Source of the DNA: a virus
Taxonomy: Duplodnaviria > Heunggongvirae > Uroviricota > Caudoviricetes
DNA: 14,590 bases
Direction: 5' to 3' (one strand)
IMG/VR virus record: IMGVR_UViG_2563366895_000002
Location: 1 to 14,590 of that record
Position numbers and translations under genes: made by a program. Positions 1-14,590 of this stretch are shown one piece after another. The notes under the pieces are model-generated. The model did not search any database and was not told the origin of the DNA. It saw only the letters and a list, made by a program, of their open reading frames with translations. The stretch's first letter is position 1. Each line of letters begins with the position of its first letter.

Positions 1-1164
1 TTACGCCTTCTTTATATCCTCCATAATTCCAGAGTGGGACATATTTGGGACATTATCACCAAAAATGTCGTCTATTTTCCTCGCATGCTCTGTCAAATGA
101 TTAGGCGCAAGGTGAGCATACCTACGAACCATTTCTATGGACTCCCATCCGCCCATTTCCTGAAGCACTGATAATGGGACGCCTGACTGAATCAGCCAGC
201 TTGCCCAGGTGTGTCTGAGGTCATGGAAACGGAAATCTTCAATTCCTGCACGACGACAAGCTGATAGCCATGATGTCTTGCTGTCGATGCGCATCTTCCT
301 GACCGCAGGCGTTGATGTTCCATCTGCTCGCTTAGCCGCCTTGGTATGTACAAACACCCATTTGTGATGCTTGCCTATTTGATCACGCAACACTTTACAG
401 GCGGTATCGTTCAGCGCCACACCAATGGCGCGGTTTGATTTGCTCTCTTCTGGATTCACCCAGGCAACTCGTCGCTGCATGTCGATTTGTTGCCATTCCA
501 GATTTATGATGTTCGACTTTCTCAGACCAGTTGCCAGCGCAAACTTGACGACAGATTTCAGTGGTTCGGGGCACTCATCAATAAGGCGTTTTGCTTCCTC
601 CTTTTCCAGCCATCTGACTCGCTTGTTTCTGACCGCTGGTATCTTGATGACAGGCGCTTTTTCCAGCCACTTCCAGTCGCGTTCTGCAGCACGGAGAATG
701 GCCTTTATCATGGCAAGATGCTTTGCCTTTGTCTGAGTTGATACTGGCTTTGGTTCATAAACAGGCGGTTCTTTACCTTTCCTGATGGCGGCCTGAACTT
801 TCTGTTTCCATATTTCTTTCGTCTTTCTGTTATGCATTCTGCTTACAGCAGAGTAAATCTTTGCCTCCGAGATATCTTTAAGCCTTATACCCTCAAAATG
901 TTCAAGCCAGAACTCAATCCGGCTTTTATCTGAATCGAGAGATTTTTTATCAGCTTTTTCCTCAAGCCATCTTAGGCAGGCCTCTTCAAAAGTGACATCA
1001 GGTAAATCCCCTAGCTTTTCTACTCGCCAGAGTTCTGCTTTTCGCTTGTCGTGCAACTCCTGAGCTTGCCGCTTGTCCTTTGTGCCAAGAGATTCCTTAA
1101 TTCGTTTCCCGCCCGGGAGCGAATACGAGGCATACCATATTTCATTTCTGCGGAAGAGTGACAT
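1..1164 (-). CDS. intD: Phage tyrosine integrase (DLP12/P22-type), complete 387 aa
   Basis: Full-length ORF on the minus strand; stop codon at bases 1-3. C-terminal catalytic region shows the tyrosine-recombinase motifs ([10 protein letters not shown] ... VRRYAHL). Recognised from memory as the DLP12 integrase; the 3' end faces the window edge as expected for an int gene next to attL/tRNA. Confidence 0.9.
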
Positions 1165-1296
1165 TTTCTTTCCTCTGTTATGCCATCACCCGCGCTCACC
1201 TGGACAGTATGCAGCGGAGACTGAAGCGCCGCAATGCAGGCTTGCCGTGTTGTGAGGTAAGGAGATTTTGGCTTGGTTGGATCTTTACGTGTTGCC

Positions 1297-1470
1297 TGTA
1301 AAAGCCGCGAGGACAACGCTGTCGCAGTGTTGGCGGAACTGCTGACGCGTGCTTATCCTTGTCCGCCGCTGACACCACGTATACCAGCCGCTGCGGGCCA
1401 CCCGGAGCACGCGGCACATTGCTTTGATGCTGAACTCAGCCTGATGTTTTTCAATAAAGACATACTTCAT
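1297..1470 (-). pseudogene. insF: IS3 OrfB (InsF) N-terminal fragment, truncated after ~58 codons
   Basis: [58 protein letters not shown] matches the InsF N-terminus, then diverges and hits a stop; the DDE catalytic core is absent. Confidence 0.75.
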
Positions 1471-1766
1471 TTCAGGCGCTTCGCGAAGTATGTCGCGGCC
1501 TTTTGGAGGATAGCCAGCTCTTCATCCCGTTCTGCCAGCTGGCGTTTGAGACGTGCAATCTCGGTAGACATCTCCAGTTCACGTTCAGAAGACGTCTGCT
1601 GATTTTGCTGTTTACTGCGCCAGTTGTAGAGCTGTGATTCATACAGGCTGAGTTCACGGGCTGCGGCAGTAACACCGATGCGTTCAGCAAGCTTCAGGGC
1701 TTCACTGCGAAATTCAGGCGAATGCTGTTTACGGGGTTTTTTACTGGTTGATACTGTTTTTGTCAT
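1467..1766 (-). CDS. insE: IS3 OrfA transposase subunit (InsE), 99 aa
   Basis: Translation [40 protein letters not shown]... matches IS3 OrfA; ATG at 1766 (the track's 1775 start is an upstream GTG). Confidence 0.85.
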
Positions 1767-1831
1767 GTGAGTCACCTCTGACTGAGAGTTTACTCACTTA
1801 GCCGCGTGTCCACTATTGCTGGGTAAGATCA

Positions 1832-1994
1832 GCGAACGGTGTATTACCGGTTCGCTACCAGAGAAGAACGGGAAGGAAAGGTGAGCACGAATCTGATTTT
1901 TAAGGAGTGTCGCCAGAGTGCCGCGATGAAACGCGTATTGAGGGTATATAAAAGGAACATCAATGGGTACACAATGATGAAACAGGTGAGTTGA
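1832..1994 (+). pseudogene. renD: C-terminal remnant of Ren-like protein (renD'), separated from its 5' part by the IS3 insertion
   Basis: Frame starting at 1839 translates VYYRFATREEREGKVSTNLIFKECRQSAAMKRVL..., resembling the lambda Ren C-terminus from memory; it begins immediately at the IS3 end (1831) and stops at 1992-1994. Confidence 0.55.
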
Positions 1995-2044
1995 TTTCAA
2001 ACTGTAGTACAATTCTCTCCAGTTTGAACAGGAAAGAATATGCT

Positions 2045-2377
2045 ATGAACCCTTATATTTATCTTGGTGGTGCAATACTTGCAGAGGTCATTGGTACAAC
2101 CTTAATGAAGTTTTCAGAAGGTTTTACACGGTTATGGCCATCTGTTGGTACAATTATTTGTTATTGTGCATCATTCTGGTTATTAGCTCAGACGCTGGCT
2201 TATATTCCTACAGGGATTGCTTATGCTATCTGGTCAGGAGTCGGTATTGTCCTGATTAGCTTACTGTCATGGGGATTTTTCGGCCAACGGCTGGACCTGC
2301 CAGCCATTATAGGCATGATGTTGATTTGTGCCGGTGTGTTGGTTATTAATTTATTGTCACGAAGCACACCACATTAA
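2045..2377 (+). CDS. emrE: Small multidrug resistance (SMR) efflux transporter EmrE, 110 aa
   Basis: Translation MNPYIYLGGAILAEVIGTTLMKFSEGFTRLWPSVGTIICYCASFWLLAQTLAYIPTGIAYAIWSGVGIVLISLLSWGFFGQRLDLPAIIGMMLICAGVL.INLLSRSTPH matches EmrE from memory, including the conserved membrane-embedded Glu in the first helix (AILAEVIGT). ATG at 2045; the track's 1991 start is an upstream TTG. Confidence 0.95.
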   Translation: MNPYIYLGGAILAEVIGTTLMKFSEGFTRLWPSVGTIICYCASFWLLAQTLAYIPTGIAYAIWSGVGIVLISLLSWGFFGQRLDLPAIIGMMLICAGVLVINLLSRSTPH

Positions 2378-2408
2378 AAATAATTTGTTTCTAAACGACT
2401 AAAATATG

Positions 2409-2446
2409 GAGGCTCTTATATTTATATGAGCCTCGTTTTATGCTTT
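2409..2446 (+). terminator. Putative intrinsic terminator downstream of emrE
   Basis: GAGGCTC (2409-2415) pairs with GAGCCTC (2428-2434) around an AT-rich loop, followed by GTTTTATGCTTTTTG. Confidence 0.5.
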
Positions 2447-2633
2447 TTGTTAATGTCTTTATTTTTTTATGTATTCTTTTGTGCTTTCAAGATTATGGCG
2501 TAAGAAAATTGCAATACGATTATTGTTGTATATTCAAGATAATGTGACCTTAATTGTCTTTTTAAATAAAAATTAAACAAAAATTATATCTCACCACTAA
2601 GGTTTATAAAAGCATACGTTAGCAGGTGTCACC

Positions 2634-4160
2634 ATGAAAAAAGCCATAGCATATATGCGATTTTCATCACCAGGTCAGATGTCTGGCGACTCATTAAACC
2701 GACAGAGAAGACTTATTGCTGAATGGTTAAAGGTAAATAGTGATTATTATCTTGATACCATAACATATGAAGATTTAGGATTAAGTGCATTCAAAGGAAA
2801 GCATGCACAATCAGGAGCTTTTTCGGAATTTTTAGATGCTATAGAGCATGGTTATATATTGCCAGGAACTACATTGTTAGTTGAAAGTCTGGACAGACTT
2901 TCAAGAGAAAAAGTCGGTGAAGCGATTGAGCGTCTGAAATTGATTTTGAATCACGGTATTGATGTTATAACTCTTTGCGATAATACAGTCTATAATATTG
3001 ACTCTTTGAATGATCCATATTCATTAATAAAAGCCATACTTATAGCACAAAGGGCAAATGAAGAAAGCGAGATAAAGTCAAGTCGGGTTAAATTATCATG
3101 GAAGAAAAAACGGCAGGATGCACTGGAGTCAGGCACGATTATGACGGCGTCTTGTCCGAGATGGCTCTCCTTAGATGACAAAAGAACGGCTTTTGTTCCA
3201 GACCCCGACAGGGTGAAAACTATTGAGCTAATTTTTAAACTCAGGATGGAAAGGCGCTCATTGAATGCAATAGCCAAGTATTTAAATGATCATGCTGTAA
3301 AGAATTTCTCAGGAAAAGAAAGTGCATGGGGACCTTCTGTAATTGAAAAATTATTAGCGAATAAAGCTCTGATAGGTATATGCGTACCTTCATATCGTGC
3401 AAGAGGTAAAGGAATAAGTGAAATCGCTGGCTATTATCCCAGAGTCATATCAGATGATTTGTTTTACGCTGTGCAGGAAATTCGGTTGGCACCTTTTGGT
3501 ATTAGCAATAGTAGCAAAAACCCTATGTTGATAAATCTACTTCGAACAGTTATGAAGTGCGAGGCTTGTGGTAATACCATGATTGTTCATGCGGTATCTG
3601 GAAGTTTGCATGGCTATTATGTTTGTCCGATGAGAAGACTGCATCGATGTGACAGGCCATCAATAAAGAGAGATTTGGTTGATTATAATATCATTAATGA
3701 GTTGCTTTTTAATTGTAGTAAAATCCAACCAGTTGAAAACAAGAAAGATGCTAATGAAACTTTAGAGTTGAAAATTATTGAGCTCCAGATGAAAATTAAT
3801 AATTTAATTGCTGCATTATCTGTTGCGCCTGAAGTTACCGCTATAGCAGAAAAAATCAGAGTATTAGATAAGGAATTACGAAGGGCTTCTGTATCATTAA
3901 AAACTTTGAAGAGTAAAGCGGTGAGCTCACTTGGTGATTTTCATGCTATTGACTTAACCAGTAAAAATGGGCGAGAGCTATGTCGTACACTTGCCTATAA
4001 AACATTCGAAAAAATCATAATCAATACAGATAATAAAACCTGTGATATCTATTTTATGAATGGCATTGTTTTTAAACACTATCCTTTAATGAAAACAATA
4101 TCCGCCCAGCAGGCGATAAGTACTCTCAAATATATGGTTGATGGTGAGGTTTATTTTTGA
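2634..4160 (+). CDS. ybcK: Large serine recombinase (resolvase/invertase-type N-terminal domain), YbcK-like, 508 aa
   Basis: N-terminal YMRFSSPGQ motif with the presumptive catalytic Ser; a Cys-rich segment (CEACGN...CPMRRLHRC) typical of large serine recombinases. Matches DLP12 YbcK by length and sequence from memory. ATG at 2634 with AGGTG 6 nt upstream. Gene is visibly AT-rich. Confidence 0.85.
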   Translation: MKKAIAYMRFSSPGQMSGDSLNRQRRLIAEWLKVNSDYYLDTITYEDLGLSAFKGKHAQSGAFSEFLDAIEHGYILPGTTLLVESLDRLSREKVGEAIERLKLILNHGIDVITLCDNTVYNIDSLNDPYSLIKAILIAQRANEESEIKSSRVKLSWKKKRQDALESGTIMTASCPRWLSLDDKRTAFVPDPDRVKTIELIFKLRMERRSLNAIAKYLNDHAVKNFSGKESAWGPSVIEKLLANKALIGICVPSYRARGKGISEIAGYYPRVISDDLFYAVQEIRLAPFGISNSSKNPMLINLLRTVMKCEACGNTMIVHAVSGSLHGYYVCPMRRLHRCDRPSIKRDLVDYNIINELLFNCSKIQPVENKKDANETLELKIIELQMKINNLIAALSVAPEVTAIAEKIRVLDKELRRASVSLKTLKSKAVSSLGDFHAIDLTSKNGRELCRTLAYKTFEKIIINTDNKTCDIYFMNGIVFKHYPLMKTISAQQAISTLKYMVDGEVYF

Positions 4161-4271
4161 GTAATAATCACTTTTTCAACCGTGCTATAGTAAGAAAGTT
4201 AGGTAAGTACAATAAAATTATCTATCCTGAACGAAGCGTCCTGAGCTATGGTTTTACTATAGGGACTGCCA

Positions 4272-4589
4272 ATGGATGCTGGCGTTCTCGTTCTAGCAGT
4301 TCAACAATCCCCAATCACAAAACAATTCACTGATAACGAACTTTGCACACTCGCCTGGTTATGGCGAGCAGGGAATGTGATGTTAATTGCCTACCAGAAC
4401 GTTACTCATCTTCTTCAGGATGCGGAGCATGGTGAAGCTGGTCACTTCACTTCCATCGAGCAAGAATATCCCCAGATACTCAACAGAGCGCGAGCAATCC
4501 TCGTCCGAGAAACGGCACATGTAAAACTTCAGCCGTGGCAGGATGATAAGTGGAGTCGAGTATTGCCGTATTTGCGTCAAATCTGTTAG
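4272..4589 (+). CDS. Hypothetical protein, 105 aa, no family recognised
   Basis: ATG-initiated ORF with GC content near the host average, flanked by AT-rich DNA. No motif I can assign and no convincing Shine-Dalgarno seen; may be a gene remnant. Confidence 0.35.
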   Translation: MDAGVLVLAVQQSPITKQFTDNELCTLAWLWRAGNVMLIAYQNVTHLLQDAEHGEAGHFTSIEQEYPQILNRARAILVRETAHVKLQPWQDDKWSRVLPYLRQIC

Positions 4590-4686
4590 GAGTATAGCCG
4601 CCAGCCATGAGTGTTGTATTAAAACAAGGATGTCTATATATGGGATAGCGAGAGTATGAATATCAGTTATTTTGAGAGTTAACTGA

Positions 4687-4710
4687 TTGTGAAATTAGTT
4701 TTTTTCACAA
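4687..4710. promoter_or_regulatory. Inverted repeat TTGTGAAA-N8-TTTCACAA upstream of the 309-aa ORF; candidate operator
   Basis: Perfect 8-bp arms at 4687-4694 and 4703-4710 in an AT-rich intergenic region about 85 bp upstream of the ATG at 4794. Confidence 0.25.
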
Positions 4711-4793
4711 ACGAGTGGGGTTACTATGATGAGTGTTCTAATGCATAGGGAACACCTAATTTTTTCAATGAATTCAAATTGATAGGATCAAAA

Positions 4794-5723
4794 ATGGCAC
4801 AACAGAGAACTACCTCCCTCAGATCCATACCTTTAGACTTAGATGTTAAGCAAGAGGCTGTCATTAACGGTATAGAAATGGGGGTACTCGATAACGGAAT
4901 TCCGTACCTTACTCAGAATGGGTTGGCAAATGTTTGTGGTGTTCAGCGTTTGCGAATCAAGGAAATTACCGATGAGTGGGCTCAATCCGTTGAGAACGGT
5001 ATTTTCAAAAAAGGAAGAATGACTTTTATTGGTACATATCTTCTTAATGAAGGTTTTACAGATGAAAAACTTTATATACCAATAATTCGAAATGGTGTTG
5101 AGTACCATGCTTATCCAGATGTTGTATGCATGGCTATACTTGAATACTATGCCTTTGAAGCAAAACAAGCAGAAAGTGAGACTGCAATTAGATCTTACAG
5201 AGAGCTTGCTAAAAAAGGCCTCAAGACATTTATATACGAGGCGCTAAAATATCAACCGGAGGACCCGTGGAGGCATTACCATGACAGAGTATCTTTATTA
5301 AAAGATAAGGGAACCATACCTGATGGGTATTTCATTATATTTAATGAAATTGCAGGTATGATGGTAGATCTCATCAATGCTGGATTAGCGATTAATCAGC
5401 ATACCGTACCTGATGGCAGTGTTGGTTCTTGCTGGGCGCGTCACTGGAAAGCAAAGGGGTTAGCAACAGAATTTGGAGAAAGAGTAGACTGTGAGCATTA
5501 TTACCCTGAAGATTTTCTTCAGGCAAGTTCCAATCCTCAGATCATTAATGCCTATCCTGATTCTGCATTGTCAGAGTTTCGTAGATGGTTTAAGCATGAA
5601 TATTTAACCACAAAGTTCCCACCGTATATTCTTAAAAAATCAAACGTGCTTCCTGGTGGTACAGAAGATGCTAATCGTCTGATAGAAGCTTTCAAAAAAT
5701 CAGAGCTAGAAAATAAACCATAA
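4794..5723 (+). CDS. Hypothetical protein, 309 aa, unknown function; candidate prophage cargo or defence protein
   Basis: ATG at 4794 preceded by AGGA at 4784-4787 (the track's 4779 start is an upstream TTG). Long clean ORF, visibly AT-rich, no transmembrane or signal sequence evident. N-terminal segment (GIEMGVLDNGIPYLTQNGLANVCGVQRLRIKEITDEW) is loosely reminiscent of KilA-N/Bro-N DNA-binding domains; this is unverified. Confidence 0.6.
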   Translation: MAQQRTTSLRSIPLDLDVKQEAVINGIEMGVLDNGIPYLTQNGLANVCGVQRLRIKEITDEWAQSVENGIFKKGRMTFIGTYLLNEGFTDEKLYIPIIRNGVEYHAYPDVVCMAILEYYAFEAKQAESETAIRSYRELAKKGLKTFIYEALKYQPEDPWRHYHDRVSLLKDKGTIPDGYFIIFNEIAGMMVDLINAGLAINQHTVPDGSVGSCWARHWKAKGLATEFGERVDCEHYYPEDFLQASSNPQIINAYPDSALSEFRRWFKHEYLTTKFPPYILKKSNVLPGGTEDANRLIEAFKKSELENKP

Positions 5724-5821
5724 TTGTTTTTTGGCTTTTGATTTTACATAATCATTTTGCCATAATCATGTCATCGGAGCCTGAACAACTCCGGTGACTT
5801 CTGCGCTAAACGGGGACGTTT

Positions 5822-5923
5822 ATGCGCACATACAATCCAAACTCTCTTCTCCCTTCACAGATGCAGAGATGCACCTGCGATTTTTTGCATCCAGCGTTTG
5901 ACCTCTGCGGAGGTGAAGCGTGA
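5822..5923 (+). CDS. ylcH: Small protein YlcH-like, 33 aa
   Basis: [36 protein letters not shown] whose stop overlaps the ybcN GTG start (GTGA); position and size match DLP12 ylcH from memory. Confidence 0.45.
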
Positions 5924-6375
5924 ATCTCCCACAAGATGGCATCAAATTACATCGCGGTAACTTCACCGCTATCGGTCGGCAGATCCAGCCTTATCTGGAG
6001 GAGGGCAAATGCTTTCGCATGGTGCTTAAACCGTGGCGTGAGAAACGCAGTCTTTCCCAGAATGCACTCAGCCACATGTGGTACAGCGAAATCAGTGAAT
6101 ACCTCATCAACAGGGGTAAAACGTTCGCCACTCCAGCTTGGGTAAAAGATGCTCTCAAACACACATATCTCGGTTATGAAACCAAAGACCTGGTTGATGT
6201 CGTAACCGGTGATATCACCACTATCCAGTCGTTACGCCATACCTCCGATCTTGATACCGGAGAGATGTATGTCTTCCTGTGTAAGGTTGAAGCCTGGGCG
6301 GTGAATATTGGCTGCCACCTGACTATTCCGCAGAGCTGCGAGTTCCAGCTGCTCCGTGACAAGCAGGAGGCGTAA
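5920..6375 (+). CDS. ybcN: YbcN, NinB/Orf-like DNA-binding protein, 151 aa
   Basis: GTG start at 5920 with GGAGG upstream; translation matches DLP12 YbcN from memory. Confidence 0.85.
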
Positions 6376-6545
6376 TGGCTACACCGCTTATTCGTGTCAT
6401 GAACGGACACATCTACAGAGTATCAAATCGTCGTAAGCGTAAGCCTGAGCCGAAGCCATCCGAAATACCAACACTGCTCGGATATACCGCTAGCCTGGTT
6501 GATAAAAAATGGTTGCGACTGGCAGCAAGGAGGAATCATGGCTGA
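6375..6545 (+). CDS. ninE: NinE-like protein, 56 aa
   Basis: ATG overlaps the ybcN stop (TAATG); translation [56 protein letters not shown]. Below the track's length cutoff, found by reading the sequence. Confidence 0.75.
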   Translation: MATPLIRVMNGHIYRVSNRRKRKPEPKPSEIPTLLGYTASLVDKKWLRLAARRNHG

Positions 6546-6828
6546 TTTGAGAAAAGCAGCGCGTGGTCGGGAATGCCAGGTAAGAATCCCTGGCGTATGT
6601 AATGGCAATTCTGAAACGTCTGTACTGGCACATATCCGGCTGGCTGGATTGTGCGGTACCGGTATCAAACCGCCAGACCTGATTGCCACCATTGCATGTT
6701 CTGCCTGCCACGACGAAATCGACCGCCGCACACATTTTGTCGATGCTGCATATGCAAAAGAATGCGCGCTGGAAGGTATGGCGAGAACACAGGTTATTTG
6801 GCTGAAAGAGGGGGTTATTAAGGCGTGA
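6538..6828 (+). CDS. ybcO: YbcO, Cys/His-rich putative metal-binding nuclease-like protein, 96 aa
   Basis: ATG at 6538 overlapping the ninE 3' end; translation [24 protein letters not shown]...CSACHDEID matches YbcO from memory (the track's 6499 start is an upstream alternative). Confidence 0.8.
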
Positions 6829-7187
6829 ATACCTACAGCATCACATTACCCTGGCCTCCGAGCAATAATCGCTATTACCGCCATAATCGCGGGCGCACGC
6901 ACATCAGCGCAGAAGGGCAGGCATACCGCGATAACGTCACCCGAATCATTAAAAACGCAATGCTGGATATCGGCCTGGCTATGCCAGTGAAAATCCGTAT
7001 TGAGTGCCACATGCCGGATCGCCGTCGCCGTGACCTGGATAATCTGCAAAAAGCCGCTTTTGACGCACTCACCAAAGCAGGTTTCTGGCTGGATGATGCT
7101 CAGGTCGTTGATTACCGCGTTGTGAAGATGCCTGTTACCAAAGGTGGGAGGCTGGAACTGACCATCACCGAAATGGGGAATGAATGA
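6825..7187 (+). CDS. rusA: RusA Holliday junction resolvase, 120 aa
   Basis: GTG at 6825 overlapping the ybcO stop (GTGA); translation [36 protein letters not shown]... matches RusA from memory. Confidence 0.9.
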
Positions 7188-7324
7188 TGTTTGAGTTTTA
7201 TATGGCAGAACTTCTTCGCCACCGCTGGGGGCATCTGCGCTTATATCGTTTCCCCGGTTCTGTTTTGACCGATTACCGAATACTGAAGAATTACGCCAAA
7301 ACCCTGACAGGAGCAGGAGTATGA
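7184..7324 (+). CDS. ylcG: YlcG-like small protein, 46 aa
   Basis: ATG overlapping the rusA stop; translation [46 protein letters not shown]. Confidence 0.6.
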
Positions 7325-7409
7325 AGTCAGAGATAACAATCAACTAATACTGTTTTGTTGATTTTTGCTTGTAATTGGCGTTCTGGTCTGATTTTTGTGG
7401 AGTAAGTTG

Positions 7410-7793
7410 ATGCGTGATATTCAGATGGTTCTTGAGCGTTGGGGAGCGTGGGCGGCTAATAATCATGAAGATGTGACCTGGTCGTCCATTGCCGCCGGTT
7501 TTAAGGGATTAATTACTTCAAAAGTAAAATCTCGCCCGCAATGTTGTGACGATGACGCGATGATTATTTGCGGGTGCATGGCCCGTCTGAAAAAGAACAA
7601 CAGCGATTTGCACGATTTATTAGTAGATTATTATGTAGTCGGTATGACATTCATGTCACTGGCAGGTAAGCATTGCTGCTCTGATGGTTATATCGGGAAA
7701 AGGTTACAGAAGGCTGAGGGCATAATTGAAGGGATGTTAATGGCATTAGATATCCGGTTAGAGATGGATATCGTTGTTAATAACTCTAATTAA
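7410..7793 (+). CDS. quuD: Late-gene antiterminator Q homolog (QuuD), 127 aa
   Basis: ATG at 7410 (the track's 7395 start is an upstream TTG); translation [24 protein letters not shown]... with the Cys cluster [12 protein letters not shown]; sits immediately upstream of the hairpin cluster and lysis genes. Confidence 0.85.
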
Positions 7794-7810
7794 TATGCCA
7801 ATTGTTTACT

Positions 7811-7844
7811 AAAAATTATTAAAAATGGGGCGTTGAGACGCCCC
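7811..7844 (-). terminator. GC-rich hairpin GGGGCG-TTGAGA-CGCCCC with U-tract on the minus strand
   Basis: Stem 7827-7832 / 7839-7844; the + strand upstream is AAAAATTATTAAAAAT, which reads as a T-tract after the hairpin on the minus strand. Could terminate nmpC transcription or be part of the late promoter region; strand assignment is uncertain. Confidence 0.4.
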
Positions 7845-7883
7845 CAAAAATAAAGGGTAATATATAACAGAAGGTTTATATAG

Positions 7884-7972
7884 TTAGAAGCAAGGTTGTG
7901 CTTCTAAAGGAAGTGGCTTGAGGGAGCCACTTATATGTTGGGGAGGCAACGCCTCCCGCAACATATCTTTTT
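7884..7972 (+). terminator. Three consecutive hairpins downstream of quuD, the last followed by CTTTTT (tR'-like intrinsic terminator)
   Basis: Hairpins at 7884-7907 (TTAGAAGCA/TGCTTCTAA), 7911-7932 (AAGTGGCT/AGCCACTT) and 7933-7966 (ATATGTTGGGGAGGC/GCCTCCCGCAACATAT), then T-run 7967-7972. Position between Q and the lysis genes fits a lambdoid late leader/terminator. Confidence 0.5.
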
Positions 7973-7982
7973 CGTAATCAGA

Positions 7983-9080
7983 TTAGAACTGGTAAACCAG
8001 ACCTACAGCAACGATGTCATCAGTGCTTACACCGAGTGCTTTAGTGAAGTCATTTTTGTCAAGCAGGTTGATTTTGTAATCAACGAAAGTAGACATATTT
8101 TTGTTGAAGTAATAGGTTGCACCTACATCAACATATTTGACTAAGTCCTGATCGCCCCATACTCCAAGATCTTTACCTTTAGATTGCAGGTAAGCAACGG
8201 ACGGACGCAGACCGAAATCGAACTGATATTGTGCAACAGCTTCGAAGTTTTGGGCTTTATTAGCAACGAAGTGATCAGCAAATACAGTCATATTCTGGGT
8301 TTCAGAATAGGTAGTGGCCAGGTAAATGTTGTTAGCGTCATATTTCAGACCTGCGGCCCAAACTTCTGCATTTTTACCGGAAGCAAATACTTCAGGAAGA
8401 ACTTTCCCTGCATTAACTTGAGTGTCGGTACGATCAGATTTCGCATAAGTTGCACCGATACCGAATCCTTCGTATTCATAGGTAGCAGAGAAACCGAAGC
8501 CATCACCGTTACCTTCAGTGTAGTTATCGAAATCGCTACGATCGTTTTTGCCTTGGTACTGAGCAGCAAAGTTCAGACCATCAACCAGACCAAAGAAGTC
8601 GTTGTTACGATAGGTTGCAACACCAGTGGTGCGACCAGTCATGAACACATCTGTTTGGGTCCAGGTATCGCCACCGAATTCTGGCAGAACGTCAGTCCAC
8701 GCACCGATGTCGTATGCTACACCGTAGTTACGGCCGTAATCGATTGAGCCGTAGTCACCGAATTTCAGGCCTGCAAATGCAAGACGGGTTTTGTCTTTGG
8801 AGGAACCTTGAGATTCAGCGCGGTTGCCTTTGAATTCATATTCCCACTGACCGAAACCAGTCAGTTGATCGTTGATTTGGGTTTCACCTTTGAAGCCAAG
8901 ACGGGCATAAGTAGTATCACCATCATCTGCATCATTAGAGGAGAAGTAGTGCTTGGCATTAACTTTCCCGTACAGATCCAGCTTGTTACTGTCTTTATTA
9001 TAAATTTCAGCTGCCTGAGCAGACATCGCCATCAGTACTGATGCAGCTACAGCAGAAATTGCCACTGTTAATTTTTTCAT
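7983..9080 (-). CDS. nmpC: Outer membrane porin NmpC (OmpC/OmpD family), intact 365 aa with signal peptide
   Basis: Translation begins [29 protein letters not shown] and ends with the porin C-terminal ...VAVGLVYQF; full length with no interruption. Confidence 0.9.
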
Positions 9081-9668
9081 CGTGAGCCCTTTTTTTTGAA
9101 CTATTATTAAAAAATGATGTCACTGCGCGATAAATATTCATCTAATCAATGTGATTATTTCAAGATGTAAGTTTTAGTTTCTCATTTAATTTGTGAAGTA
9201 GATCTCTATTTTTATCTGAACTTTTTCTATCGAAACCTATTTATGGCTCTTATTTGAACAAAAATAAACCTATTAGCTAATTTATATTAATGGTTGTTAT
9301 TTATGGAGGTTCTATAATTCGGCAGTTTAATTTAAATCAACTAAAAATAACGTCTGAAATTATTTATTGGTTATTTGTTGAGGTTTTCTTATGTATTTGT
9401 GGTGGTGTTTTGAACACTCGGTAGCATTCTCATAAATATCATTCAGTGGTTTACGTACGTAAAAAATTGGTTATGCTGTTAAGAGTGGTTACTTCGTCAC
9501 ACAGCTTAAACCCGCCGTCGAGCTGGTTTTTCCATTTTTTGAGTCTCGATATTAGCTGATAACTCAATACCTGAGTTATTCACTGACTCCGAGTCTGTTA
9601 CGTTTCTGCTTTTTTGCGATACGTTGTATTCCCTCAATTTACACCCGCTTTGTCTGCGAGGTGGGGTT

Positions 9669-9884
9669 ATGAAATCCATGGATAAGTTAACAACGGGTGT
9701 CGCCTATGGCACCTCAGCAGGTAGTGCCGGTTACTGGTTTTTACAGCTGCTCGATAAAGTCACGCCCTCACAGTGGGCAGCAATAGGTGTGCTGGGTAGC
9801 CTGGTATTTGGCCTGCTGACGTACCTGACAAACCTTTATTTCAAGATTAAAGAAGATAAGCGCAAGGCTGCGAGAGGTGAATAA
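9669..9884 (+). CDS. essD: Pinholin (phage 21 S-type), 71 aa, with MKSM dual-start motif
   Basis: Translation [71 protein letters not shown]; ATG at 9669 (the track's 9624 start is an upstream alternative); stop overlaps the rrrD start (TAATG). Confidence 0.8.
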
Positions 9885-10381
9885 TGCCTCCATCATTACG
9901 AAAAGCCGTTGCTGCTGCTATTGGTGGCGGAGCAATTGCTATAGCATCAGTGTTAATTACTGGCCCAAGTGGTAACGATGGTCTGGAAGGTGTCAGCTAC
10001 ATACCATACAAAGATATTGTTGGTGTATGGACTGTATGTCACGGGCATACAGGAAAAGACATCATGCTCGGTAAAACGTATACCAAAGCAGAATGCAAAG
10101 CCCTCCTGAATAAAGACCTTGCCACGGTCGCCAGACAAATTAACCCGTACATCAAAGTCGATATACCGGAAACAATGCGCGGCGCTCTTTACTCATTCGT
10201 TTACAACGTGGGTGCTGGCAATTTCAGAACATCGACGCTTCTTCGCAAAATAAACCAGGGCGATATCAAAGGCGCATGTGATCAGCTACGTCGCTGGACA
10301 TATGCTGGCGGTAAGCAATGGAAAGGTCTCATGACTCGTCGTGAGATTGAGCGTGAAATCTGTTTGTGGGGTCAGCAATGA
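9884..10381 (+). CDS. rrrD: SAR endolysin (lysozyme), 165 aa
   Basis: N-terminal Gly/Ala-rich signal-anchor-release segment ([20 protein letters not shown]) followed by a lysozyme domain; matches RrrD from memory. Confidence 0.9.
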
Positions 10382-10839
10382 ACAGAGTAACCGCGATTAT
10401 CTCCGCTCTGGTTATCTGCATCATCGTCGGCCTGTCATGGGCTGTTAATCATTACCGTGATAACGCCATTACCTACAAAGCCCAGCGCGACAAAAATGCC
10501 AGAGAACTGAAGCTGGCGAACGCGGCAATTACTGACATGCAGATGCGTCAGCGTGATGTTGCTGCGCTCGATGCAAAATACACGAAGGAGTTAGCTGATG
10601 CGAAAGCTGAAAATGATGCTCTGCGTGATGATGTTGCCGCTGGTCGTCGTCGGTTGCACATCAAAGCAGTCTGTCAGTCAGTGCGTGAAGCCACCACCGC
10701 CTCCGGCGTGGATAATGCAGCCTCCCCCCGACTGGCAGACACCGCTGAACGGGATTATTTCACCCTCAGAGAGAGGCTGATCACTATGCAAAAACAACTG
10801 GAAGGAGCCCAGAAGTATATTAATGAGCAGTGCAGATAG
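10378..10839 (+). CDS. rzpD: Rz-like spanin (inner-membrane subunit), 153 aa
   Basis: ATG at 10378 overlapping the rrrD stop; N-terminal transmembrane helix and coiled-coil-like Ala/Asp/Arg-rich region. Confidence 0.85.
10598..10780 (+). CDS. rzoD: Rz1-like outer-membrane lipoprotein spanin subunit, 60 aa, embedded in rzpD in another frame
   Basis: ATG at 10598 with GGAG upstream; lipobox LVVVGC; proline-rich (PPPPPAW...PPPDW); lies entirely within rzpD. Confidence 0.8.
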
Positions 10840-10870
10840 AGCTGCCCATATCGATGGGCAACTCATGCAA

Positions 10871-11164
10871 TTATTGTGAGCAATACACACGCGCTTCCAG
10901 CGGAGTATAAATGCCTAAAGTAATAAAACCGAGCAATCCATTTACGAATGTTTGCTGGGTTTCTGTTTTAACAACATTTTCTGCGCCGCCACAAATTTTG
11001 GCTGCATCAACAGTTTTCTCCTGTCCAATTCCCGAAACGAAGAAGTGATGGGTGATGGTTTCCTTTGGTGTTACTGCTGTCGGTTTGTTTCCAACAGTAA
11101 ACGTCTGTTGAGCACATCCTGTAATAAGCATTGCCAGAGCGGCAGAAAACAACATTTTTTTCAT
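10871..11164 (-). CDS. borD: Bor lipoprotein homolog (serum-resistance-associated), 97 aa
   Basis: Translation MKKMLFSAALAMLITGC... with lipobox LITGC; ATG at 11164 (the track's 11212 start is an upstream alternative). Confidence 0.85.
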   Translation of the reverse strand: MKKMLFSAALAMLITGCAQQTFTVGNKPTAVTPKETITHHFFVSGIGQEKTVDAAKICGGAENVVKTETQQTFVNGLLGFITLGIYTPLEARVYCSQ

Positions 11165-11523
11165 CTTATTATCCTGCATTGTTAAAAACGGCAGAATCCT
11201 ATGTGACAACAATTAAACGATAGTTAAATGGATTGATGAAAATTAAAACTATATAGGTGGATGCTCAGCCTATTGGAGGAGGGGGGCACTCAGAATCCTG
11301 TGGAATGAAATAAACCGCTCTTTCTGTCCATTACCCTTTTAGCTGCGCTGTATCGTCGCCGTATTCCCGCATTAACCATGACCGTAGCCCGACGGGGAAT
11401 TCCTTCTGCGTGAGTGTGCGGGAATAATCAAAAACGATGCACACCGGGTTTTACTGTGCTGACAGACGCAGGGTTACCCTCATAGTCGCTTTTCCGGTGC
11501 GATGGTGGAAGAAACCGGGATGT

Positions 11524-11718
11524 TTATTCATCATCACTTTGGATTGATGTATATGCTCTCTTTTCTGACGTTAGTCTCCGACGGCAGGCTTCAATGACCC
11601 AGGCTGAGAAATTCCCAGACCCTTTTTGCTCAAGAGCGATGTTAATTTGTTCAATCATTTGGTTAGGAAAGCGGATGTTGCGGGTTGTTGTTCTGCGGGT
11701 TCTGTTCTTAGTTGACAT
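11524..11718 (-). CDS. ylcI: Small ribbon-helix-helix-like protein (YlcI-like), 64 aa
   Basis: ATG at 11718; Arg-rich N-terminus followed by a predicted strand-helix-helix pattern (RNIRFPNQMIEQINIALEQKGSGNFSAWVIEACRRRL). Confidence 0.55.
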   Translation of the reverse strand: MSTKNRTRRTTTRNIRFPNQMIEQINIALEQKGSGNFSAWVIEACRRRLTSEKRAYTSIQSDDE

Positions 11719-11879
11719 GAGGTTGCCCCGTATTCAGTGTTGCTGATTTGTATTGTCTGAAGTTGTTTTTACGTTAAGTTGATGCAGATCAATTAATACG
11801 ATACCTGCGTCATAATTGATTATTTGACGTGGTTTGATGGCGTAGATGCACGTTGTGATATGTAGATGATAATTATTAT

Positions 11880-12106
11880 CATTTTTCGGGTCCTTTCCGG
11901 CGATCCGACAGGTTACGGGGCGGCGACCTCGCGGGTTTTCGCTATTTATGAAAATTTTCCGGTTTAAGGCGTTTCCGTTCTTCTTCGTCATAACTTAATG
12001 TTTTTATTTAAAATACCCTCTGAAAAGAAAGGAAACGACAGGTGCTGAAAGCGAGCTTTTTGGCCTCTGTCGTTTCCTTTCTCTGTTTTTGTCCGTGGAA
12101 TGAACA
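11880..12106 (+). other. Lambda-type cos site (cosQ, cosN 12-nt cohesive end at 11918-11929, cosB with Nu1 R-sites)
   Basis: Sequence ...CGGGTCCTTTCCGGCGATCCGACAGGTTACG/GGGCGGCGACCTCGCGGGTTTTCGCTATTTATGAAAATTTTCCGGTTTAAGGCGTTTCCGTTCTTCTTCG... is nearly identical to the lambda cos region as I remember it, continuing into the Nu1 start codon at 12107. Confidence 0.8.
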
Positions 12107-13327
12107 ATGGAAGTCAACAAAAAGCAGCTGGCTGATATTTTCGGTGCGAGTATCCGTACCATTCAGAACTGGCAGGAGCAGGGAATGCCCGTTCTGCGAG
12201 GCGGTGGCAAGGGTAATGAGGTGCTTTATGATTCTGCCGCCGTCATAAAATGGTATGCCGAAACCATGCCACAGGCGAGTTCTGTTGTTTCAATTACGTT
12301 GATTGGTGGCGCTGGATTTAACGTGGGGTCACCTCAACAGGCAGGTATATCTGAACTTGTTTTACGTGCAGGTAATGGTAATCCGAAGGGGATTACTGGT
12401 GCTTTATGGCAGCGCACATCGACAGGGTTTACAAATTTTGCCTGGGTCAATACATCTGGTGATACTTACGATATTTACGTTGCAATCGGAAATTATGCGA
12501 CTGGTGTAAATATTCAATGGGATTATACCAGTAATGCCAGCGTGACGATTCATACGTCACCAGCATATTCTGCTAATAAGCCGGAAGGGTTAACGGACGG
12601 TACAGTTTATTCACTCTATACGCCATCAGAGCAGTTTTATCCGCCTGGCGCACCAATCCCGTGGCCATCAGATACCGTTCCGTCTGGCTATGCCCTGATG
12701 CAGGGGCAGACTTTTGACAAATCTGCATACCCGAAACTTGCAGCCGCTTATCCGTCAGGCGTGATCCCTGATATGCGTGGCTGGACGATTAAGGGCAAAC
12801 CTGCCAGTGGTCGGGCCGTATTGTCTCAGGAACAGGACGGCATTAAATCGCATACCCACAGCGCCAGCGCATCCAGTACGGATTTGGGGACGAAAACCAC
12901 ATCGTCGTTTGATTACGGCACTAAATCCACGAATAACACTGGTGCGCATACCCATAGTTTAAGTGGCAGCACGAATGCAGCTGGTAATCACAGCCATAGA
13001 GATGGCCGTCGATTTAACCCCAGTGTTTTTAAAGATACTTATCAATATGGTTATACAAGCTCAGGTCAAAATACCTGGGGTGTACAAGGCTCAGTAGGTA
13101 TGTCTACGGGGTGGTTAGCGAATACCAGTACAGATGGTAATCATAGCCATTCACTGTCCGGCACAGCAGCATCTGCAGGTGCACACGCGCATACTGTCGG
13201 TATTGGTGCTCATACGCACTCCGTTGCGATTGGTTCACATGGACACACCATCACCGTTAACGCTGCTGGTAACGCGGAAAACACCGTCAAAAACATCGCA
13301 TTTAACTATATTGTGAGGCTTGCATAA
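12107..13327 (+). CDS. Chimeric ORF: terminase small subunit Nu1 N-terminus (aa 1-~52, winged-helix DNA-binding part) fused in frame to a side tail fibre C-terminal region (~354 aa) with HxH repeats
   Basis: First 52 residues [52 protein letters not shown] match lambda Nu1; after about 12264 the sequence switches to tail-fibre-like sequence ([48 protein letters not shown]...) with six HxH motifs (GAHTHS, GNHSHR, GNHSHS, GAHAHT, GAHTHS, GSHGHT). Confidence 0.8.
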
Positions 13328-13902
13328 TGGCATTCAGAATGAGTGAACAACCACGGACCATAAAAATTTATAATCTGCTGGCCGGAACTAATGAATTTAT
13401 TGGTGAAGGTGACGCATATATTCCGCCTCATACAGGTCTGCCAGCAAACAGTACCGATATTGCACCACCAGATATTCCTGCTGGCTTTGTGGCTGTTTTC
13501 AACAGTGATAAGGCATCGTGGCATCTCGTTGAAGACCATCGGGGTAAAACGGTTTATGACGTAGCGTCAGGGGACGCGTTATTTATTTCTGAACTCGGTC
13601 CGTTACCGGAAAATGTTACCTGGTTATCGCCGGAAGGGGAGTTTCAGAAGTGGAACGGCACAGCCTGGGTGAAAGATGCAGAAGCAGAAAAACTGTTCCG
13701 GATCCGAGAGGCGGAAGAAACAAAAAACAGCCTGATGCAGGTAGCCAGTGAGCATATTGCGCCACTTCAGGATGCTGTAGATCTGGAAATCGCAACGGAG
13801 GAAGAAACCTCATTGCTGGAAGCCTGGAAAAAGTATCGGGTGTTGCTGAACCGTGTTGATACGTCAACTGCACAGGATATTGAATGGCCAGCACTGCCGT
13901 AG
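13327..13902 (+). CDS. tfaR: Tail fibre assembly protein (Tfa; TfaR/TfaQ-like), 191 aa
   Basis: ATG overlaps the stop of the upstream fibre ORF (TAATG); translation [54 protein letters not shown]... matches Rac/Qin-type Tfa from memory. Confidence 0.9.
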
Positions 13903-13999
13903 GGTAAAACATATAAATTCTATAATTAGATGTATCTTTCCATTTACGGCAAGGAAGGGGGCTTGGAAGACGTAAAGCATCTCACACCGAGATTATTTT

Positions 14000-14590
14000 T
14001 TATATGTCAGGTGTCTGAAGTTTTGCTTTGGCTCTTAAAATGGTTTGCCGCGAGGTTTTGAATTCCCGGGCAATGGCACTTATACTTACACCTGACTTAA
14101 TTCGTTCGAATACCACCTGTTTCTGTTCTTCATTTAACACAGGTGGTCGACCAAAACGTTTCCCTGCGCCGCGGGCTCTTACTATCCCGGAATGAGTGCG
14201 TTCAAGTAAAAGGTCTCGTTCAAATTCAGCGACTGCTGAAATTACGTGCATCATCATTTTTCCTGTTGGACTGGTCAGGTCAATGCCCCCCAATGCTAAG
14301 CAATGCACTCTGATACCTGTTTCGGTCAGTTGTTCCACTGTTTTCCTGATATCCATTGCATTACAACCAAGGCGATCCAGTTTTGTCACAATCAATTGAT
14401 CACCACATTTCAGGCGAGCAAGCAACCGGTTAAAACCAGGACGCTCACTGGTTGCTGCTGAGCCGCTAATGTGTTCTTCGATTATTTGCTGAGGTTTGAT
14501 TTTAAAACCTGCACTTTCGATTTCCCTGCGTTGATTTTCGATGGTCTGATCCAGCGTTGATATCCGACAGTAAGCAAAAATTCGAGACAT
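14000..14590 (-). CDS. pinR: Serine DNA invertase of the Pin/Gin/Hin/Cin family, complete 196 aa
   Basis: Start codon at the window edge (14588-14590); N-terminal catalytic motif [10 protein letters not shown] with the active-site Ser, and a C-terminal HTH ([22 protein letters not shown]). Closest to PinR/PinQ from memory. Confidence 0.9.

Follow-up and report, generated by a model that had tools for sequence, protein, structure and literature searches.

The 14,590-bp stretch of DNA analysed here (the window), which runs 14.6 kb from intD (1-1164, minus strand) to pin (14000-14590, minus strand), is very probably a decayed lambda-like prophage of the argU site, with a right arm that is its own distal late region, joined to the left arm by a 21,200-bp deletion. 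The result is a case of ordinary decay within one prophage, not a cross between two. An earlier note made from the sequence had read the window as a DLP12-type left arm joined to a tail-fibre module of Rac or Qin type. The discontinuity that it placed near 12265 is real, and its start lies within 2 nt of the true junction (12263/12264). Both parental sequences, their spacing in the intact relative, the junction sequence, the synteny past pin and the population frequencies were obtained directly.

Site, integrase, gene order and sequence all place the window in the DLP12 family. The closed chromosome of E. coli WL164 (NZ_CP128642.1) differs from the window by 2 SNPs in 14,590 bp, at 5994 and 6190. 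In the WL164 RefSeq annotation the left end reads argU, intD, IS3 fragment, ren', emrE, ylcJ and ybcK, followed by a P22AR_C gene, a BstA_C gene, ybcN, ninE, ybcO, rusA, ylcG and quuD, the lysis region with an intact nmpC-type porin gene, essD, rrrD, rzpD, iss/bor and ylcI, and at the right end the truncated genes of a DNA-packaging protein and a tail protein, then tfa and a recombinase gene. The window starts at the intD stop codon, intD abuts the tRNA gene (16 nt separate it from argU in WL164), and a 47-bp argU repeat (attR) is found at the far end, between ompT and envY, as in K-12; the 47-bp attR has likewise been described (PMC6379469). The retained left arm carries the same annotated genes as K-12 DLP12 and is 95-99.8% identical to it in the homologous blocks, in agreement with the gene content originally assigned.

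The features around the junction are collected in Table 1. The stf-tfa-pin content of the right end, first proposed from the letters alone, is borne out by the Pfam domains. The truncated nohD' is the same as intact nohD up to 12263, with Phage_Nu1 covering residues 1-53, and PGAP labels it in WL164 as "DNA-packaging protein, incomplete". The stf fragment carries the collar domain and His-rich fibre repeats and is 99.96% identical to the 3' part of the intact prophage stf. The Tfa protein (WP_000885616.1) is common to WL164, the intact argU prophage and a Qin-site prophage of strain IAI1, and the Pin protein (WP_000086514.1) to WL164 and the intact argU prophage. Just upstream of nohD lies an inverted repeat, presumably the lambda cosB-region sequence; this cos-proximal repeat is kept intact, and positions 11400-12263 are 100% identical to the intact prophage. 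A promoter and terminator consensus scan of 11700-14590 gave counts no higher than chance.

Table 1. Features of the right arm and the junction (window coordinates)
Feature	Coordinates	Strand	Description	Evidence
Inverted repeat I1	12026..12082	+	25-nt arms, just upstream of nohD	inverted-repeat search (20026-20082 in the WL164-derived sequence L001)
nohD'	12107..12263	+	Nu1-type small terminase / DNA-packaging gene, first 157 nt (52 codons + 1 nt)	
Nu1'-'Stf fusion ORF	12107..13327	+	406 aa, in frame	continuous ORF; translation compared with intact NohD and Stf
Deletion junction	12262..12263	.	2-bp microhomology AA	three-way alignment of the window with left and right parents
'stf	12264..13327	+	C-terminal 354 codons of side tail fibre gene (intact 986 aa)	Pfam Collar, Phage_fiber
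tfa	13327..13902	+	tail fibre assembly, intact, 191 aa	Pfam Caudo_TAP, E=3e-44
pin	14000..14590	-	small serine recombinase (DNA invertase type), intact, 196 aa	Pfam Resolvase + HTH_7

The breakpoint is sharp, with stf', tfa and pin on its right. About two dozen complete genomes match positions 1-12263 at 99.8-100%, with the match ending exactly there; for most of the complete E. coli genomes with a match to the left arm, that match ends at exactly 12263, and the matches to the right arm begin at 12262. Strain 1410D004 (NZ_CP149567.1) holds a complete lambda-like prophage at argU, in the order intD, recombination/immunity region, O, P, ren, emrE, the nin/Q/lysis region as in the window, nohD and terminase, then the head and tail genes, J, lom, the 986-aa Stf, Tfa and Pin, and finally ydfK, ynaM, a methyltransferase gene, tfa', a hydrolase gene and ompT. 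The window aligns with this prophage in three colinear blocks, 1-1300 (100%), 1822-12263 (99.97%) and 12262-14590 (99.96%, with a single mismatch, at 13368). The second and third blocks sit 21,200 bp apart in the 1410D004 prophage. Compared with the intact argU prophages of 1410D004 and RM9387, every retained segment of the window is 99.96-100% identical, with no difference in the Tfa, Pin and right-flank proteins, whereas the 21.2 kb from terminase A to the N-terminal part of stf are missing.

Because both sides of the junction match one intact argU prophage at places 21,200 bp apart, the junction is read as an internal deletion. Its endpoints are nohD nt 157 and about stf nt 1895, it corresponds to coordinate 34216 of the intact prophage, and the frame was preserved by chance. 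The flanks are colinear with one relative, the interval between them is missing and the overlap is only 2 bp; no IS and no hix/pix-like recombinase site was found at the junction. Such a scar is what one illegitimate, microhomology-level event would leave, and its class is probably replication slippage or end joining at the 2-bp homology. The deletion took out the large terminase gene, every head and tail gene, J and lom, together with the first two thirds of stf (its N-terminal part), and left cos-nohD' in frame with the 3' part of stf, followed by intact tfa and convergent pin.

The earlier note had suggested a recombinant between two resident lambdoid prophages. On this reading, DLP12 would have acquired the right arm of Rac or Qin through a homologous or illegitimate exchange. 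K-12 indeed has its only intact tfa-pin copies in Rac and Qin, Pin is 99% identical to PinR, and such regions do swap among lambda-like prophages (De Paepe et al. 2014, PMC3945230). However, both sides of the junction come from one intact argU prophage, at 99.96% identity or more, and the homology at the junction amounts to 2 bp between nohD and stf of one phage. The loci are moreover 0.85-1.07 Mb apart (K-12 coordinates), so that an exchange would invert or delete the intervening chromosome, and the DLP12 right flank follows pin in WL164 and in five draft contigs, with no switch of backbone or flank. We therefore regard this reading as very improbable, and the original suggestion is abandoned.

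The window itself stops at pin, and the downstream flank was read from WL164 and draft contigs. In WL164, pin is followed by ydfK, ynaM, a SAM methyltransferase gene (ybcY homologue), tfa' (tfaX), a hydrolase gene and ompT, and past ompT by the 47-bp argU repeat (attR), envY, ybcH and nfrA, which is the normal DLP12 right flank. Neither a chromosomal rearrangement nor a Rac or Qin flank was found after pin in WL164, and the five draft assemblies, which encode the identical fusion protein, have the DLP12 flank after pin too. Across complete E. coli genomes, pin-to-ompT is contiguous in 247 of 5,426, which makes pin a normal resident of the argU locus. The stf-tfa-pin genes thus belong to the same element as the left arm: they are contiguous with it in intact argU prophages, pin is linked to ompT, and K-12 DLP12 retains a tfaD' remnant.

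The window junction occurs in one of the 5,426 complete genomes, and the exact junction 40-mer had no match in the metagenome contigs scanned. This rarity would suit an assembly chimera, in which two prophage contigs are wrongly joined at a repeat, and lambdoid prophages are classic sources of mis-assembly. The closed WL164 chromosome nevertheless has the junction while differing at 2 SNPs, and for this reason it counts as a separate sequence record. The 406-aa fusion protein was also found, in exactly this form, on at least 25 contigs that belong to different NCBI assemblies (47 index blocks of a public assembly collection), always in the same context with identical neighbours, and the 2-bp overlap is far under any assembler k-mer. 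A mis-join, which had been raised as a caution, is hardly credible, and a deletion allele that exists in the genomes is the reading that we retain.

The nohD'::'stf junction is a derived deletion scar of one lineage, neither an ancestral arrangement nor a mosaic joint. The earlier note would have given up the recombinant reading if DLP12-site prophages of non-K-12 strains carried the stf-tfa-pin module naturally and with the same junction; natural carriage was confirmed by the 247 genomes, but the junction is restricted to the one lineage. The alternative wording of a DLP12 variant with a different tail-fibre module was right about the variant, which is of the DLP12 family, and wrong about the module, which is the native right end of argU prophages. 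The presence of stf-tfa-pin at argU is the ancestral state and does not attest to recombination between prophages. Only this particular deletion allele is new here and previously undescribed; the "grounding" of prophages by deletion is a well-known type of event (PMC6379469).

The resemblance of the right arm to Rac and Qin was examined within K-12 and beyond. PinR comes nearest to Pin (99.0% identical), ahead of PinQ (98.0%) and PinE (37.7%); Tfa is 96.9% identical to TfaQ, 96.5% to the TfaD remnant of DLP12 and 96.3% to TfaR. The claim of a closest match to Rac holds narrowly and within K-12 only. The nucleotide identity of tfa-pin is 97.5% to K-12 Rac and 97.1% to K-12 Qin, and the Stf C-terminus is only 63-70% identical to StfR and StfQ at the protein level. 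K-12 Qin has the same layout after decay, with ynfO/ylcI, cos, a Nu1 gene joined to a 3' fragment of stf, tfa and convergent pin (nohA-stfQ'-tfaQ-pinQ-ydfK-ynfT), but it is integrated at ydfJ, its junction lies at about coordinate 34588 of the intact prophage and is not in frame, nohA is almost complete, and the Stf tip is only 70% identical to that of the window.

The stf3'-tfa-pin segment is also found at about 100% identity in prophages that other strains carry at other sites, for example at the Qin site in IAI1, so percent identity alone cannot assign the locus and synteny was used for the purpose. This complete IAI1 prophage encodes Tfa, Pin, YdfK and YnfT proteins identical to those of the argU prophage, and its late region is colinear with the argU prophage over more than 17 kb at 96-97.5% identity, with the homology ending just after ynfT. 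The homology of K-12 Rac and Qin to the argU prophage stops at the same point. These shared ends suggest that the late region up to ynaM is a module common to lambda-like phages with different integrases.

Modular mosaicism is a familiar structure of lambdoid phages, and a broader account would be that 12263 is a deletion while the argU late region, from the tail genes to ynaM, circulates among lambda-like phages integrated at argU, ttcA/Rac, ydfJ/Qin and attLambda, being "Rac/Qin type" to that extent. The IAI1 colinearity, the identical proteins, the common end of homology after ynfT in K-12 Rac and Qin and a related stf'-tfa at the bio/lambda att locus of TOK-001 all favour it, and exchange of lambda-like phages with defective prophages has been shown experimentally (De Paepe et al. 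2014, PMC3945230). We consider this account rather more probable than not. Module sharing explains why the right arm had been placed with Rac and Qin, but it does not account for the flagged discontinuity at 12263, and it describes a well-known lambdoid structure with no feature particular to the window. The internal deletion remains our explanation of the junction itself.

K-12 DLP12 resembles the window in its overall plan: intD abuts argU, the order is ren'-emrE-ybcK...ybcN-ninE-ybcO-rusA-ylcG-quuD-porin-essD-rrrD-rzpD-bor-ylcI-cos-nohD, and the early region and the head/tail block are lost in both. Every deletion endpoint differs, however. K-12 DLP12 joins nt 308 of the terminase gene (aaaD') to nt 147 of tfa, whereas the window joins nohD nt 157 to stf; K-12 DLP12 is without pin-ydfK-ynaM, whereas the window keeps tfa and pin. 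The absence of pin from K-12 DLP12, stated in the earlier note, was confirmed in the K-12 annotation. The window, unlike K-12 DLP12, has an intact nmpC-type porin gene without IS5, and it carries the P22AR_C and BstA_C genes at the position of K-12 ybcL/ybcM and is without ybcV/ybcW.

The K-12 tfaD' matches window positions 13473-13889 at 96.9%, and relative to WL164 this part of K-12 lacks exactly pin-ydfK-ynaM (21890-23646 of the WL164-derived sequence, in which 20026 corresponds to window position 12026); on both grounds K-12 derives from the same stf-tfa-pin arrangement. K-12 DLP12 is thus the derived state, with its own independent deletions, by which pin was lost. The K-12 junction is found in 366 of 5,426 genomes, and a third allele, with terminase nt 245 joined to stf nt 2027, was detected in six chicken isolates.

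The window is 99.97% identical to the 1410D004-type intact prophage as against 95-98% to K-12, and therefore descends from the 1410D004 type and not from the K-12 lineage; the same two blocks were thus lost independently and in parallel. Besides the late block, an early region of about 7.5 kb (xis to the 5' part of ren) is missing compared with the intact prophage, and a 531-bp IS3 fragment is in its place. A second, IS3-associated deletion took out this early region. The two deletions combined would have made the prophage permanently defective, as the repressor, the replication genes, the large terminase subunit, the heads and the tails are gone.

The case thereby shows parallel reductive evolution, in which two lineages independently lost the same two blocks and arrived at nearly identical cryptic gene contents. 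Genes for which host functions have been reported, namely emrE, the porin gene, the lysis cassette and bor/iss, were retained in both, and pin was retained in the window lineage as well. K-12 DLP12 is a poor reference for the content of DLP12-site prophages.

Of the late operon, cos, the Nu1'-'Stf chimera, tfa and pin are left. The fusion ORF is made up of Nu1 residues 1-52, a threonine and the C-terminal 353 aa of Stf, and the Pfam search over the whole ORF gives Phage_Nu1 (residues 1-53) followed by Collar and Phage_fiber. Our best guess is that the fusion is a neutral by-product of the deletion.

Pin has the two parts of a Din-type recombinase, an N-terminal catalytic domain and a C-terminal HTH (Pfam Resolvase and HTH_7), and the sequence YCRISTLDQ near its N-terminus fits the catalytic YxRxSTxxQ motif. 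Like the Din-family switches (Pin/e14 P, Gin/Mu G, Cin/P1 C), the window has a small serine recombinase gene beside tail-fibre and assembly genes; in contrast to them, it has no inverted crossover sites and no opposed stf/tfa set, and its Pin is 37.7% identical to PinE. Neither the hix/gix/cix-type consensus nor the e14 pix repeat had a match in the window with up to 3 mismatches, and no suitable inverted repeat was found around stf'..tfa' in WL164 (positions 19500-25200 of the WL164-derived sequence). The sole second tfa fragment in that interval is in direct orientation, with no opposed second stf/tfa set. As no crossover sites were found, the arrangement is not taken to be a Din-type invertible switch, and an invertible segment in the right arm was rejected: with neither crossover sites nor inverted repeats, Pin has no visible local substrate.

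In K-12, PinQ and PinR were reported to invert the e14 P segment in trans, giving a chimeric StfE2 that blocks T2 adsorption, and no inversions were found inside Rac or Qin themselves (Kirigo et al. 2025, PMC12529663). The local absence of sites in the window is consistent with the latter observation. With no crossover site nearby, our best guess is that Pin is an active invertase that would be able to act only in trans.

Deletion endpoints in other genomes were found to cluster in nohD and the terminase gene. In three independent junctions of complete genomes the left endpoints differ by no more than 3 nt, all near nt ~245 of terminase (GTCGGTTA^T^T), and the junctions lead to stf in the E14 lineage, to the 3' end of stf in LR-45 and to lom in E94. 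These three had come from a biased ranking, and a second sample was therefore taken, made up of 120 metagenome contigs for which a 29-mer from the start of nohD was the sole anchor, and in which the end of colinearity with the intact prophage was mapped. About 16 distinct junctions lay between the start of nohD and nt 400 of terminase, and by our own tally 7 of them lie in one 7-nt window, GAACTGATA^CCGGGG, 8-14 nt before the terminase start codon, where the nohD 3' sequence reads GAACTGATACC; a uniform distribution would give about 0.12 junctions per 7-nt window. At least 6 of the 7 have different right partners (J, lom, the 3' end of stf, the region after terminase and two others). One metagenome contig (L045) is also at the nt-245 site, and a nohA-J fragment junction at the nohD 3' hot spot belongs to a widespread Qin variant. 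The window junction, at intact coordinate 34216, is at neither hot spot.

The microhomology at the clustered junctions is 0-10 nt. Together with the fixed left end and the variable right ends, this would fit DNA that breaks at a specific site or has a protected end, and common ancestry may explain some of the events. If the clustering is true, a specific mechanism would stand behind the grounding of lambda-like prophages. No IS, no Din-type site and no convincing Chi or gyrase motif was evident at the hot spots; the hot-spot sequences were compared by eye only with gyrase-consensus, Chi-like and Din-site patterns, and none of these fits convincingly.

A 161-nt terminase query of complete genomes gave a truncated best match in about 89 of 3,751 records, and the ylcI contexts sampled for deletion variants were mostly intact prophages. 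Independent deletions of the head-tail block of this type were seen at the argU, Qin and lambda-att loci. We think it unlikely that the right arm is the product of a recurrent and partly directed stripping of head and tail genes that keeps cos-nu1' and stf'-tfa-pin, with pin and the Nu1'-'Stf fusion as possible selected cargo. The two hot spots, GAACTGATA^CC in the 3' end of nohD and GTCGGTTA^TT near nt ~245 of terminase, each with many different right partners, would speak for this and against random decay in a sample anchored on the nohD start only, and pin of the PinQ/PinR type has been reported in anti-phage defence (PMC12529663).

The head-tail deletion in the window element is in frame and leads to a Nu1'-'Stf fusion ORF, for which the native nohD start precedes the open frame. 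The predicted fusion protein combines the N-terminal 52 residues of Nu1 with the last 354 residues of Stf, its receptor-binding C-terminal part, and at least 25 public contigs encode an identical protein. The window and WL164, a near-identical closed E. coli chromosome, differ only at positions 5994 and 6190, both in ybcN, which is annotated with an internal stop in WL164 but is open in the window.

A second deletion removed the early genes from xis to the 5' part of ren, about 7.5 kb, and the terminal 531 bp of IS3 are found in their place. The end of this IS3 fragment directly borders ren, roughly 60 bp away from the site of the IS3 in K-12 DLP12, which is complete and oppositely oriented. 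The early-region loss appears to reflect an independent insertion of IS3 into ren and a subsequent deletion next to the IS.

The left arm carries P22AR_C and BstA_C genes at the place occupied by ybcL/ybcM in K-12 DLP12; both genes are shared with the intact lambda-like argU prophage of E. coli strain 1410D004 and are possibly anti-phage cargo. The nmpC-type porin gene is free of IS5, whereas the K-12 copy contains it. The K-12 ybcV-ybcW segment is missing from the window element (interval 11219-11506), and likewise from the intact 1410D004-type prophage.

Features of the window element and deletion endpoint clusters in related prophages
Feature	Position	Strand	Remarks
Segment flanking the IS3 fragment	1-1300		
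IS3 fragment	1301-1831	minus	
Segment flanking the IS3 fragment	1832 onward		
P22AR C-terminal-domain gene	4272-4589		Pfam PF10548
BstA C-terminal-domain gene	4794-5723		Pfam PF26567
ybcN	5920-6375		151 aa
nmpC-type porin gene	7983-9080	minus	intact
Nu1'-'Stf fusion ORF	12107-13327		across the deletion
Endpoint clusters	34566-34572 and 34824-34826		coordinates of the intact 1410D004 prophage (locus L002)
Examples of loci with clustered endpoints			L080, L071, L083, L064, L068, L143, L045, L009, L011, L012

In lambda-like prophages outside the window, the left ends of nohD/terminase deletions gather at two nucleotide-precise positions. The first site, GAACTGATA^CC, is at the 3' end of nohD and the second, GTCGGTTA^TT, at about nt 245 of the terminase gene; the window's own junction is at neither of them. 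A single 7-nt interval holds 7 of about 16 junctions in the anchored sample (n = 120 metagenome contigs), and the right partners at the clustered endpoints are diverse (J, lom, stf, post-terminase and unknown sequences).

At the 1410D004 argU locus, a second partial prophage set was detected past ompT (L003, 5100-8550), comprising an int' fragment with 91% identity to intD, tfa', a methyltransferase gene, another copy of ompT and one more att-like argU repeat. This arrangement indicates that prophages have occupied the argU site in tandem or serially. In GCA_904810285.1 (contig CAJGGV010000001.1, locus L023), the Rac left flank, ynaL-dbpA-ttcA-intR-recT, directly adjoins late genes of the DLP12 type (Q, porin, lysis, bor and ylcI), and nohD is absent. 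Either the locus has truly been rearranged or the element sits at a different insertion site; the contig illustrates how a changed flank appears. A prophage remnant adjoins ybhB-bioA in TOK-001 (L010, 4924-6941), presumably near the lambda attachment site. This remnant carries a nohD' (nt 235)::'stf-tfa junction of its own that lacks microhomology, and it represents a further case in which the head-tail block was lost independently.
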